Source: a virus
Lineage: Duplodnaviria; Caudoviricetes
DNA length: 37,510 nucleotides
IMG/VR virus record: IMGVR_UViG_3300030059_001343
Location: 1 to 37,510 of that record
Strand: one strand, 5' to 3'
Every line of letters begins with the position of its first letter. Position 1 is the stretch's first letter. This document shows positions 5,062-12,808 of this stretch, one piece after another. A program made the position numbers and the translations under genes. The notes beneath the pieces are model-generated. The model did not search any database, had not been told where the DNA came from, and saw only the letters and a program-made list of their open reading frames with translations.

Positions 5062-5187
5062 TTAAAGCACCCCCATCAAAGCGGCAATCATAATAACGCC
5101 GACGTACAAGCTAACCGCAAAAGCGGCAACGGCTAAACTTTCTAAAACAAATATAGATAAATTAATTTTTTTAAATTCGCGTAACAT
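5062..5187 (-). CDS. Small membrane protein (41 aa)
   Basis: ATG 5187 with SD aaagg; hydrophobic LAVAAFAVSLYVGVIMIAALMGVL. Confidence 0.55.
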   Translation of the reverse strand: MLREFKKINLSIFVLESLAVAAFAVSLYVGVIMIAALMGVL

Positions 5188-5219
5188 TTTATAACCTTTC
5201 TCTATTTTTAAAAACAATT

Positions 5220-5933
5220 TTAGACATAAACTGTAGATTTTTCTACCCGACAAATTACAGCTTTCACTTGCTCTGGGCTCCACTTTTTTTTGTTAAGCGA
5301 AGTTACAACTTTGCGCTCTTGCAACTCTTGCCCAATCCCCCGGAGTGTAGTCACTCCAAGCTTGCGGATTCGTTCTATCACCGCGTAAACTTCTTCAGCC
5401 TTTTCATCAGCCTGTGCAGTGCGTACAGCCCTGCCAAGCCTCATAGCCGCGTCAGGGTTAGGGTTGCCAAGCTTGACGCCACGGCCCTTTACAACAGCCA
5501 GTGCGTCCTTTGTGCGTTTGCTTATTTGATCGCTCTCATATTCAGCCATCGCCGCGATAATATGTATCGTCAGCTTGTTTGCCATCGGCATATCAGCCGC
5601 GACAAAATCAATTTTGCTTTCCAGAAGTTTTGAAACGAAAGCGACGTTACGTGCCAAACGATCTATCTTTGCGACGAGTAACGTTGCGCCTGTCTCCTCG
5701 CATAGCTCCAAAGCTTTCATTAATTGGGGGCGTTTCTTTTTATTTGTCCCGGTTTCAACTTCTTCGAAGCTTTTAATGATTTTCCAGTCGCCGCCATTTA
5801 AATAGTCGTCAATGGCTTTGGTCTGAGCCTCAAGGCCAAGGCCCGATTGCCCCTGCCTATTTGTCGAGACGCGAATATAGGTGACGTATTTCCCCCTATG
5901 CTCGGCCCCGGCAGTGTATTTTTTATCCATCAC
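5220..5933 (-). CDS. Short serine recombinase (resolvase-type catalytic domain plus short C-terminal DNA-binding region)
   Basis: YIRVST..QG.SGLGLEAQ, RPQL..AL, LLVAKIDRLARN, AEYE...ISKRTKDAL...K.RG..LGNP. Confidence 0.92.
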   Translation of the reverse strand: MMDKKYTAGAEHRGKYVTYIRVSTNRQGQSGLGLEAQTKAIDDYLNGGDWKIIKSFEEVETGTNKKKRPQLMKALELCEETGATLLVAKIDRLARNVAFVSKLLESKIDFVAADMPMANKLTIHIIAAMAEYESDQISKRTKDALAVVKGRGVKLGNPNPDAAMRLGRAVRTAQADEKAEEVYAVIERIRKLGVTTLRGIGQELQERKVVTSLNKKKWSPEQVKAVICRVEKSTVYV

Positions 5934-6221: not shown

Positions 6222-6389
6222 GTGACGTATTTTGAAAGACCCCCCAGAAAACTGCCGTTTTTTATAAAGTTAAAGCCTTCACTCATGTCCGATTTGAGAG
6301 AAGTGGCAACCCTTGGCAGTGTGACGATGACATCGATCATTGAGAAGGCGTTAACCGAGTACCTTAAAAAAAATAAGGGGGGAAAGTGA
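6222..6389 (+). CDS. Ribbon-helix-helix (Arc/CopG-like) regulator, 55 aa; not in ORF track
   Basis: Hand translation MTYFERPPRKLPFFIKLKPSLMSDLREVATLGSVTMTSIIEKALTEYLKKNKGGK*: beta-strand then two helices; TGA overlaps the next start (GTGATG). Confidence 0.75.
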   Translation: MTYFERPPRKLPFFIKLKPSLMSDLREVATLGSVTMTSIIEKALTEYLKKNKGGK

Positions 6390-6400
6390 TGCGATTTAAC
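6386..6400 (+). repeat. 15-bp direct repeat GTGATGCGATTTAAC, copy 1
   Basis: Identical to 7739-7753; both ORFs start MMRFN. Confidence 0.9.
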
Positions 6401-7732
6401 CCGTATAAGATTGATGGCCCTACAATGGTGAGCTTCTCTGGGGGCAGAACCAGCGCCTATATGTTACATAAAATTTTAGAAGCTTTTCATGGCAAACTTC
6501 CAAAAGACTATGTTGTTGTTTTTGCAAATACTGGCAAGGAAATGCCCGAAACGCTCGATTTTGTCCATGAATGTCAAGTTCAATGGGGTGTCCCAATAAC
6601 GTGGGTTGAGTGGGAGAAAACAGAAAAGTTTGTACAGGTAACGAATAGAACATCAAGGAGCGGATGCACCGGGGCTATTGGCAAAAATGCTATTGTGCCA
6701 AAACGTGTCGCGGAGATTGCTACGTCTACTGATGAAATCTTAGATTTTGGATCAGGCCCGAAATCAAACCATGTCGAAACTATGACGGGGCAAGGTTTCA
6801 ACGTAACTGGTTATGAGTTTGGCGCTAATTTTAATAATTTGAATCACACATTTAACGCACTGCACCGACAATATGACATTGTTTATGCGTCTAATGTCCT
6901 TAATACGATGGACAGTGATGAAGGGCTTTGCCTCGCTTTAGATCAAATTGCTGGATGCACTAAAAATTTAGCTGTTGTGAACTTGCCAAAAGAGCCAAGG
7001 AAAAACGCTTGGACAGGCAAGGTTGTGGATGTTGATAAGCTCACGACCTATTTGTCAGAGCGGTTTGATGAGGTCCAGATAGAAAATGGACGATCAGCCC
7101 CTATATTTCTATGTAAAAAATCCAAGGTTAAAGAAGCTCCCAATTATCACGTTGGATTTAACATCGTAAGCCATAACAGTGCGTCAAGAAATGGGGAGCC
7201 ATTTGCCCAGCTTATAGAAAAGAAGAACTATCTCCCTAACTCATTGGCTCGGTTTTGCACAACTGAATTAAAGATCAATCCTATGGTCGCGCTCATGCGG
7301 ACTATTCACGGCGTTGAAAAATGGGCCAACGTCATAGGTATTCGCGCTGATGAGCAAAGGCGATTTGAAAACATCAAAAGCAAAACTACCGTTTGGCAAA
7401 CAAAAATGCCTTTGGTTTACGACAACGTAACCTCAAGAGATGTTGCTAATTTTTGGTATAATCAGCCGTTTGACCTTCGATTGGGGGGCGTTAACGGACG
7501 AACACCTATGGGTAATTGCGACCTGTGCTTCCTAAAAGGTGCGGGAACCCTTCAAGGCATTATGCGCGACAAGCCGGGCATCGCAGATTGGTGGATTAAA
7601 CAAGAGGCCAAAATAGATGCAACTTTTGCAAAAGATCGGCCAAATTATTCAAGCTTATTAGATGTCGTTAAAAGGCAGGGTGATTTGTTTTCTGATGGCT
7701 CAGTAGAGGCCGACTGTATGTGTTTGGATTAA
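6386..7732 (+). CDS. PAPS-reductase/PP-loop family protein with nested class I SAM methyltransferase domain
   Basis: VSFSGGRTS, FANTGKE..ETLDF, SRNGEPF, RFCT.ELK, IGIRADE, GNCDLCFLK, terminal CMCLD; insert has ILDFGSG, VTGYE, YDIVYASNVLN. Confidence 0.85.
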   Translation: MMRFNPYKIDGPTMVSFSGGRTSAYMLHKILEAFHGKLPKDYVVVFANTGKEMPETLDFVHECQVQWGVPITWVEWEKTEKFVQVTNRTSRSGCTGAIGKNAIVPKRVAEIATSTDEILDFGSGPKSNHVETMTGQGFNVTGYEFGANFNNLNHTFNALHRQYDIVYASNVLNTMDSDEGLCLALDQIAGCTKNLAVVNLPKEPRKNAWTGKVVDVDKLTTYLSERFDEVQIENGRSAPIFLCKKSKVKEAPNYHVGFNIVSHNSASRNGEPFAQLIEKKNYLPNSLARFCTTELKINPMVALMRTIHGVEKWANVIGIRADEQRRFENIKSKTTVWQTKMPLVYDNVTSRDVANFWYNQPFDLRLGGVNGRTPMGNCDLCFLKGAGTLQGIMRDKPGIADWWIKQEAKIDATFAKDRPNYSSLLDVVKRQGDLFSDGSVEADCMCLD

Positions 7733-7738
7733 AGGTAC

Positions 7739-7753
7739 GTGATGCGATTTAAC
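7739..7753 (+). repeat. 15-bp direct repeat GTGATGCGATTTAAC, copy 2
   Basis: Identical to 6386-6400. Confidence 0.9.
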
Positions 7754-8059
7754 AAATACGGCAACATTAAAACGGTGGTCGATAATATCAAGTTTGATTC
7801 AAAAGCCGAGGCTCGGCGGTATTTAGAGCTAAAGCTTTTAGAGAAGGCCGGGAAAATATCAAACCTTGAGCTACAGCCCCGGTACGACATTAAAATTGGC
7901 GGCAAATACATAGCCCATTACAAGGCTGACTTTCGATATTTCACCGCCAAAGAGACCGTAGTCGAAGATGTGAAGGGTGTGAAGACCCCAATTTACAGGC
8001 TGAAAAAGAAACTAGTCGAGGCTTTGTATCCCGGCGTCAAAATTATAGAGGTTAAATGA
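7739..8059 (+). CDS. DUF1064-like PD-(D/E)XK endonuclease
   Basis: NKYGNIKTVVDNIKFDSKAEA.RY, LELQP.Y, Y.ADF.Y, VVEDVKG..T..Y.LKKKL. Confidence 0.88.
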   Translation: MMRFNKYGNIKTVVDNIKFDSKAEARRYLELKLLEKAGKISNLELQPRYDIKIGGKYIAHYKADFRYFTAKETVVEDVKGVKTPIYRLKKKLVEALYPGVKIIEVK

Positions 8060-12143: not shown

Positions 12144-12377
12144 ATGGCATTGAAGACAAAGAAGGCTGCGACTAAGGAGCCTGCCCGTCGTAGGGCTAGG
12201 GCTCACAATCAGGACGGTAGCTTTAAGGCTGACGACCCAACGACGCCTGATGTTAATGAAGCGTTTACGATTGAAGTGCCTGACATGGATGAGGCTCATC
12301 GGGAACAGCAACGCACGAAACCGCCCGGCGTTAAGTCGAGCTATCGGCGTTTAGGCGGGAAGCTTATTGAGGGTTGA
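12144..12377 (+). CDS. Hypothetical phage protein
   Basis: RARAHNQDGSFKADDPTTPDVNEAF motif; good SD. Confidence 0.7.
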   Translation: MALKTKKAATKEPARRRARAHNQDGSFKADDPTTPDVNEAFTIEVPDMDEAHREQQRTKPPGVKSSYRRLGGKLIEG

Positions 12378-12808
12378 GAGCATGCTTGCCGAGGGCGATT
12401 ACGGTTGCACAGGCAAATGCGTTATCTGCGAGTGTCGGATACTTAGATTTTGCAGACCCCAAGGTTTCTGGGTTAGTTAGGATTATTAGTGAGATTGCCC
12501 CCATATCGACGGTGTCTCCTGCGTACTGCCGGGTCGAGCATCGGCCAGAGGGTCATCCATGGCATCAGGATACTGGCACGATTGACCACATGGCTTGGTG
12601 CAAATATTCGGCGACTCTTTTGTTGACGGACCCCAAGGAATTTACGGGGGGCGGTTTTTATTTTAGGGATAACCCTGACAACCCAATTTTTCATTATTTA
12701 GATTTATTATTATTTTCTGGCGGTCGCGATAATGCTCATCAGGTGACGCGGAATAGTGGCGAGCGTAAGGCGCTAATCATGTTTTTTGGGGAGAAAGGCG
12801 ATAGCTAA
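12374..12808 (+). CDS. 2OG-Fe(II) oxygenase
   Basis: WHQD (HxD), YSATLLL....FTGG.F.F, H.V....GER.ALIMF. Confidence 0.85.
   Translation: MRACLPRAITVAQANALSASVGYLDFADPKVSGLVRIISEIAPISTVSPAYCRVEHRPEGHPWHQDTGTIDHMAWCKYSATLLLTDPKEFTGGGFYFRDNPDNPIFHYLDLLLFSGGRDNAHQVTRNSGERKALIMFFGEKGDS

Follow-up and report, generated by a model that had tools for sequence, protein, structure and literature searches.

Phage homologues of 3′-phosphoadenosine 5′-phosphosulfate (PAPS) reductase are widely counted as sulfur-metabolism genes; one study treats them as likely anti-defence genes (PMC13551039) and another leaves their role open (PMC11437467). In Vibrio phage 44E38.1, the region of p0018, a chimera of a PAPS-reductase-like domain and a Dam methylase, gave escape from Dnd (Piel et al., 10.1101/2021.05.05.442762). 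The curated enzymes closest to this phage family are SspD, BrxP and DndC (BrxP and SspD are covered in PMC12839542), and, according to PMC10853773, three cysteines of DndC make up a 4Fe-4S site while a cysteine dyad stands apart from them. Here we analyze the virus record IMGVR_UViG_3300030059_001343 (37,510 bases, CheckV completeness 97%; hereafter, the window, meaning this whole stretch of DNA), in which one open reading frame (ORF; 6386..7732, + strand) encodes a PAPS-reductase-like PP-loop enzyme with a class I methyltransferase nested inside it. The gene is a mobile, selected domain insertion and a variant of the phage PAPS-methylase chimera. A terminal PAPS-Dam fusion with anti-Dnd effect is already published; the nesting and the methyltransferase family, which we call SNVLN after its strand-4 motif, are new. 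Neither is described in the literature we searched, a search that reached few subscription journals and supplements.

Like p0018 (479 aa), the fused protein joins a phage PAPS-reductase-like domain to a methyltransferase in one chain of similar size, encoded in an exchangeable anti-defence region. Unlike p0018, compared here by its description, in which a canonical Dam is C-terminal, the methyltransferase is of a non-DPPY type and lies within the PP-loop domain. With SspD, DndC and BrxP the protein shares the PP-loop fold and three conserved cysteines plus a further pair (for DndC, PMC10853773), but it is phage-borne and solitary, falls far under the NCBIfam cut-offs and carries a methyltransferase, and no SspC/DndD ATPase, SspB/DndE or desulfurase was seen in general scans of the window (39 ORFs against PHROGs, 21 against Pfam). 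It matches the PHROG 424/NinC-type family over both halves and differs from it by a 171-aa insertion.

The fused ORF can start at GTG 6386 or ATG 6389, yields 447 aa from the ATG, and holds every motif in one open frame from 6386 to 7732 on the + strand. The N-terminal part of the PP-loop domain (residues 1–77, 6389..6619; Pfam PAPS_reduct, E 1.3e-8) contains SGGRTS (6437-6454), ANTGKE (6524-6541) and ITWVEW (6596-6613). The inserted SNVLN-family methyltransferase with its linkers spans about residues 78–253 (6620..7147), with NxTxR (6638-6658), motif I ILDFGSG (6737-6757), VTGYE (6803-6817), the strand-4 motif YDIVYASNVLN (6872-6904) and NxPxxPR (6980-7000). The C-terminal part of the PP-loop domain (residues 254–447, 7148..7732; PADLOC SspD, E 4e-17) contains SHNSASRNGEPF (7169-7204), RFCTTELK (7250-7273) with C290 (7256), C377 and C380 in GNCDLC (7511-7528), and a terminal CxC, CMC (7715-7723). 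The PHROG 424 profile matches the outer halves at E 3e-47, with PP-loop, RFC, GxRxDE and GNCxxC motifs all present. A first-pass annotation, made from the letters alone, had put the insert at about 6620-7135; its start holds, and its end lies nearer 7147.

The insert is genuine, and few homologues have it. Of 7999 candidates scored in a homologue search (245–783 aa), 7993 matched; among the best 120 of the 7993, 118 lack the insert (270–296 aa) and two are full length (446–447 aa), namely the protein's own cluster, P0002, and P0003 (70% identity; clusters at 90%). The insert is thus not universal. The halves, as the first-pass annotation stated, are normally almost adjacent: the spacer between them is 15–24 aa in 116 of the 118 insert-less homologues, against 190 aa in the fused forms (anchor patterns for the spacer did not match in the remaining two). 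The extra residues number about 171, and the alignment places the block between W72/E74 and V260. Over both halves, insert-less members are about 50–56% identical to the fused protein, and all 80 viral loci retained from 104 are insert-less. Full-length records come from several sources, seven in one fused cluster and five in the other; a 1401-bp contig from an independent study covers 6371-7771 with 39 differences, and contigs from another study cross each junction. Because independent contigs span the whole gene and both junctions, the insert is not a misassembly.

Structure prediction agrees with this anatomy. Modelled alone in AlphaFold2 with 37 sequences, the insert (predicted local distance difference test [pLDDT] 87.4, predicted template modelling score [pTM] 0.86) has a seven-strand Rossmann-like fold with a DxGxG motif I (D119-G121-G123) and an acidic motif II (E143). 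It matches 294 PDB chains at E 0.001 or better, class I methyltransferases, the best with Z 15.1 and a root-mean-square deviation (rmsd) of 2.9 over 159 aligned residues; none stands out, and the top matches are mostly small-molecule O-, N- and C-methyltransferases, with tRNA and peptide methyltransferases too. At the sequence level, Pfam Methyltransf_23 reaches E 3e-5, under its curated cut-off, and the insert profile against PDB sequences gave two matches only, at E 0.095 or worse. The whole-protein model (pLDDT 78, pTM 0.64) shows both domains, their relative placement being unreliable; pLDDT is under 50 at residues 79–99, 209–211, 362–372 and 432–447, and in the alignment used for folding (A5) 16–33 residues of each of the 12 methyltransferase-only rows lie on the C half. 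The outer halves, residues 1 to about 385, align discontinuously as a single PP-loop domain, and residues 76–249 align with methyltransferases, which bears out the proposed nesting and the discontinuous outer domain. The PP-loop domain is nearest to the APS reductase 2goy (Z 12.9, rmsd 3.6, 171 aligned, residues 1–383), followed at Z 11.9–12.6 by the PAPS reductases 7rge and 6vpu (Z 12.4), CysD (1zun), LarE-[4Fe-4S] (8cnz) and the tRNA thiolase NcsA (6scy); 1sur is a fold match too. A weak two-segment sequence match (E 0.029) links the window protein to PDB 21fy, ‘PptA’, which has a similar layout of NCxxC and terminal cysteines and could represent the wider phage family among solved structures. 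The entry was unmatched by the homologues P0004, A3, L201 and P0348 and is not among the listed fold-search matches, a profile of insert-less homologues found nothing under E 0.2 among PDB sequences, and the literature searched gave no published role for PptA.

Both domains look intact by their residues. An alignment of 180 methyltransferase relatives has 46 columns with at least 80% conservation, and the insert fits 37 of these, keeping D119-G121-G123, S168-N169-V170-N172 and N198-P200-P203-R204. In 70 insert-less relatives 95 columns reach at least 90% conservation, of which the outer halves fit 90. C290, C377, C380 and the PP-loop residues are invariant in 71 aligned homologues, and C443 and C445 are conserved in at least 90%. 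When the window gene is compared with that of P0003 (locus L152), amino acid identity is 70.5% in the insert and 68–70% in the halves; insert nonsynonymous and synonymous divergence (pN 0.20, pS 0.71, with synonymous sites near saturation) indicates that the insert is under purifying selection. The two inserts form one clade (SH-aLRT 100) on a long stem, in a tree that omitted 12 near-duplicate fused rows and places the clade among its relatives with weak support. The phage carrying L152 is dissimilar, with matches within its 21 kb to only two of the 29 other window genes tested. With one insert clade in two dissimilar phages, we infer that the fusion arose once and then moved as a unit.

The gene is a swappable accessory cassette. 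On its left lies a small 55-aa gene (6222..6389, +) whose end bears the ribosome-binding site that the cassette would use, and on its right a DUF1064/PHROG 190 resolvase-like gene (7739..8059, +). A 15-nt direct repeat brackets the fused gene: the left copy (6386..6400, +) forms its first five codons and duplicates the first five of the DUF1064 gene, the start of which is the right copy (7739..7753, +). In sequencing run X8 a contig joins 6385 to 7739, and the relative L156 (about 88% nucleotide identity) has an empty site with one repeat copy. Thirteen relatives have both flanking genes. Twelve of them carry nothing in the slot; in the thirteenth, L160, an NPPY-type DNA methyltransferase (PHROG 799) occupies it, and DUF1064 is followed directly by a separate PHROG 424 gene. 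Another slot allele continues in frame from 6386 with VLDLFS in 4/4 further runs from two studies (X7, X9, X11, X13), as seen in 30 letters only; we take this motif to be typical of C5 methylases, and an exact-pattern search of viral contigs for the allele found none. Among 80 DUF1064 loci (not dereplicated), a DNA methylase lies directly upstream in 11 and directly downstream in four. The earlier view of a replication-operon gene thus stands as to position, at the operon head, and falls as to its being a fixed part of the operon. Contig depth over the fused gene is below that of its flanks, and in X7 the VLDLFS-allele contig is much deeper than that of the fused gene; these depths sum relatives and give no allele frequency.

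The family of the PP-loop domain points away from sulfur metabolism. PADLOC ranks SspD (E 4e-17) before BrxP (3e-8) and DndC (2e-4); no NCBIfam cut-off is reached by the window protein and no CysH/APS-reductase model matches it at E 0.01, so that SspD, BrxP and DndC, rather than CysH, are the nearest curated relatives. The DndC model TIGR03183 does not match the window protein, and a relative, P0020, scores 19 of its 290 bits. ECG[LI]H, the C-terminal catalytic motif of CysH and APS reductase, is absent from the fused protein. GenBank phage relatives are annotated as NinC-like or PAPS reductase (176 records, none covering 80% of the query). Of 36 long PAPS-like homologues (519–2000 aa), 35 were examined for inserts, and 22 of these (P0318-P0346) have intein-like inserts at a GNCxxC cysteine, at sites equivalent to window 7511-7528. 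These inteins are of the LAGLIDADG type and occur at either cysteine, as two distinct alleles three residues apart. Among 25 scanned for fusions, six are joined to a DNA methylase, DndB or radical SAM; the partners are Dam, MT-A70, C5 plus D12 methylases in one protein, radical SAM and VapE, once each, and DndB twice. DndB (DGQHR) is joined to the PAPS-like domain in P0345 and P0347, and P0349 (1042 aa) is a triple fusion of C5 methylase, PAPS-like domain and D12 adenine methylase. The site of the loop accepts other insertions, of about 50 aa in P0324. Fusions and slot place the gene in a context of DNA modification, as the first-pass annotation had supposed in setting sulfur metabolism aside, and of anti-defence.

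The insert belongs to a large viral methyltransferase family whose detection called for a profile: a single-sequence viral scan gave two candidates and confirmed none, and 50,697 GenBank phage records held no match. The profile finds 1195 representatives at 50% clustering (150 of them listed), 882 at 1e-10. The family is nearly all viral (Atlas clusters 75–100% viral; 71 viral loci against eight in 185,579 prokaryote genomes). Its standalone members are about 160–190 aa (39 of 51 candidates), and of 182 family proteins 107 have at most 230 aa and 24 are longer than 1200 aa. Partner domains among the longer proteins (65 of the 75 scanned) include ART-PolyVal, InPase, LPD38, DarA_C, zeta-toxin-like, topoisomerase IB, SLT and NlpC/P60 domains, and PRTase is also among the co-domains of giant members; Pfam and PMC5512222 list several of these as polyvalent-protein domains. 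The family recalls the DarB-type adenine methylases in that both place a methyltransferase domain in giant phage anti-defence proteins, but the DarB-type clade has NPP(Y/F), an SF2 helicase and LPD36, and the insert family has SNVLN and no NPP(Y/F) (PMC5512222).

With the Dnd-associated TIGR04096 the family shares a class I fold, a V[IL]N motif after strand 4 and an accessory domain (HRKE-type), found in 17 of 82 long members (not dereplicated); it differs in that its catalytic similarity is not above that of generic controls, the insert has no accessory domain and the family is viral. NCBIfam confirms the accessory domain in 9/9 members tested (E 2e-27 to 0.004, all under cut-off), and it has no match outside the SNVLN family in 4239 sequences. 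The window protein itself does not match TIGR04096 (cut-off 150 bits), and two of 37 relatives match weakly (best E 0.002). The idea that the insert is specifically a TIGR04096 catalytic domain gained no support, since UbiG and TehB-like controls scored as high. A viral version of the accessory domain, with HHKW for HRKE, stands before or after the SNVLN methyltransferase in P0179 (L242/L248:769-1986), P0186, P0255, P0259, P0265, L109 and L110, and seems also to occur alone beside one (L120:4729-5274). Elsewhere (L146:5479-6378), the N-terminal half of an N6/N4 DNA methylase is joined to an SNVLN methyltransferase. The VLN motif, which we presumed to link the insert to the chlorophyte-type Dam clade, gave no support for such a link. 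The main text and one supplement of PMC4738411 contain no VLN string.

The explanation we prefer, at about even confidence, is that the product of the cassette likely counters restriction through two activities, one per domain, each of which would act on the phage's own DNA independently of the other. We favor independence since either domain is often found without its partner and both turn up fused to many other domains. The cassette would be translated from the ribosome-binding site already present where the replication operon begins, so that the protein would appear as DNA replication starts. Its PP-loop domain would use ATP to adenylate a target and transfer sulfur, supplied by a host cysteine desulfurase, through a predicted three-cysteine iron-sulfur site (C290, C377, C380) and the terminal CxC; by analogy only, these three cysteines and C443/C445 fit the cysteine description of DndC. 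The outcome might be a mimic of the phosphorothioate (PT) self mark, or Dnd/Ssp restriction might be blunted otherwise. The weakest step is the last, in which the S-adenosylmethionine (SAM)-binding insert, working by a non-DPPY mechanism, would add methyl groups to phage DNA and so shield it from a second barrier. The fusion would then be a product of domain shuffling through which two disguises travel as one gene.

Several observations weigh against this explanation. A DNA methylase of known type occurs in 42 of 80 insert-less loci, a neighborhood signal that is modest because these loci shrink to 6/20 clusters after dereplication at 90%. No PT ATPase (DndD/SspC/BrxC) or recognition subunit appeared in the general scans of the window, which used no dedicated profiles; known PT systems require an ATPase and a DNA-recognition subunit (PMC12707154, PMC12914056), although the tdp cluster is stated to need tdpC alone for PT synthesis (PMC12914056). 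The Vibrio work moved two genes together, so that the PAPS domain's own role was not isolated there (10.1101/2021.05.05.442762). The motif [DNSH]PP[YFW] after strand 4, which defines the amino-methylases (Dam, EcoKI/TaqI, MT-A70, DarB type; PMC4738411), is found in none of 182 SNVLN-family domains, the insert included; the insert profile against single Dam, N6/N4, MT-A70, D12, NPPY and C5 sequences gave no alignment, with probability under 1%; and the closest solved structures are small-molecule methyltransferases. The family's catalytic domain scored 93% against TIGR04096 and 94–95% against the UbiG and TehB-like controls, and the accessory domain is absent from all six frames of the window.

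A rival reading couples the two activities, sulfur transfer and methylation, that the first-pass annotation proposed: the PP-loop/Fe-S domain would put sulfur on DNA, on backbone or base, and the nested domain would S-methylate it, or the insert would deliver SAM to the Fe-S site. Nesting does keep the two active sites within a single chain, the insert is more like small-molecule heteroatom methyltransferases than amino-methyltransferases, the SNVLN family shares its accessory domain with TIGR04096, and there is a claim that DndC uses a SAM-dependent step, one described as unprecedented for this fold (PMC10853773). Against this stand the thousands of PAPS-like homologues without the insert, the absence of a PAPS domain from all 182 other SNVLN-family proteins in the set, which weakens any coupling, and the lack of a PAPS-like gene near any of 71 viral SNVLN-family loci, which argues against a single coupled pathway; the methyltransferase family also joins many unrelated partners, the loop tolerates other insertions (P0324), and the linker is of low confidence in the model (residues 79–99). 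We therefore consider coupling quite unlikely, and it is a similarly long shot that there is a new two-step DNA mark (S-methyl phosphorothioate or a methylthio base) and that the SNVLN family comprises non-DPPY nucleic-acid methyltransferases reading or masking phosphorothioate. A different division of labor, in which the PP-loop domain serves anti-defence and the insert acts on a host protein, RNA, nucleotide signal or SAM in the manner of a polyvalent-protein effector, would suit the absent DPPY motif, the small-molecule, tRNA and peptide methyltransferases among its structural neighbors, and the ART, zeta-toxin-like kinase, pyrophosphatase and PRTase co-domains of giant members. Apart from the fused gene, however, what occupies the slot is a DNA methyltransferase, the other methyltransferase fusions of the PAPS family are all DNA methylases, and one SNVLN member (L146) is joined to an N6/N4 DNA methylase; we judge such a non-DNA target somewhat unlikely.

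The PP-loop domain might instead leave DNA unmodified and work against the host Dnd/Ssp complex as a decoy or an inhibitor, with the methyltransferase as passenger. No ATPase or recognition subunit was seen in the general window scans, and the account of the published anti-Dnd effect that was consulted describes no PT test on phage DNA (10.1101/2021.05.05.442762), yet the PP-loop residues and C290, C377 and C380 are invariant in 71 homologues and inteins target the GNCxxC cysteines, a pattern that suits a catalytic site and makes a decoy very unlikely. Highly improbable is a true CysH/APS reductase, an auxiliary gene of sulfur metabolism with an incidental methyltransferase insertion, for which the Pfam and PHROG labels and the fold matches to 2goy, 1sur and 6vpu could be cited and which is still proposed for other prophages (10.64898/2026.02.18.706556). 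The PP-loop fold is also common to CysD, LarE and NcsA, no CysH/APS-reductase model or NCBIfam cut-off is reached, no sulfur-assimilation gene appeared among the 39 window ORFs scanned with PHROGs, and the family's partners are DNA methylases and DndB. The protein also lacks the ECG[LI]H tail. Rarity, with two clusters among the best 120 of 7993, is what an assembly chimera or decaying accident would predict; 12 full-length records in two clusters from several sources, independent contigs across the junctions and an insert under purifying selection make this next to incredible.

As to how phage ‘PAPS reductases’ are counted, the allele described here, the slot in which methylases are swapped and the fusions to Dam, MT-A70, C5 and DndB suggest DNA disguise rather than sulfur metabolism. 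The gene is of value mainly as an entry point to two viral enzyme families that lack an explanation. As a single 447-aa reagent with separately removable active sites, it is suited to testing whether phage PAPS-like enzymes write sulfur on DNA, and it offers a route to a first function for a viral methyltransferase family that is large (1195 clusters at 50% identity), has no annotation and lacks the standard DNA-methylase motif. If the two steps were coupled, the product would be a new DNA modification.

Around the cassette, the window has the organization of a phage genome. Leftward genes include LexA-like, RecT, YqaJ and resolvase genes, and the rightward operon, which runs from 6222, continues with DUF1064, a DUF1376 replication initiator, terminase, head-tail adaptor, capsid and tail genes (PHROG and Pfam scans). 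The terminase is 44–47% identical to those of Pelagibacter HTVC010P-type phages, a similarity that does not establish the host. The window sequence occurs in marine metagenomes, no RNA dataset being among those listed with it, and a promoter and terminator scan gave results at chance level. GGCC is its most under-represented 4-mer (0.63 of expected; GAAC/GTTC 0.95, GATC 0.87). The window also has two 2-oxoglutarate (2OG)-Fe(II) oxygenase genes (16-900 and 12374-12808), one of them just before the terminase. A second variable slot is evident in the relatives L156 (1090-3240) and L160 (370-2490), which have about 2 kb extra between the 5062-5283 gene and the resolvase (compared with window 5062-5220).

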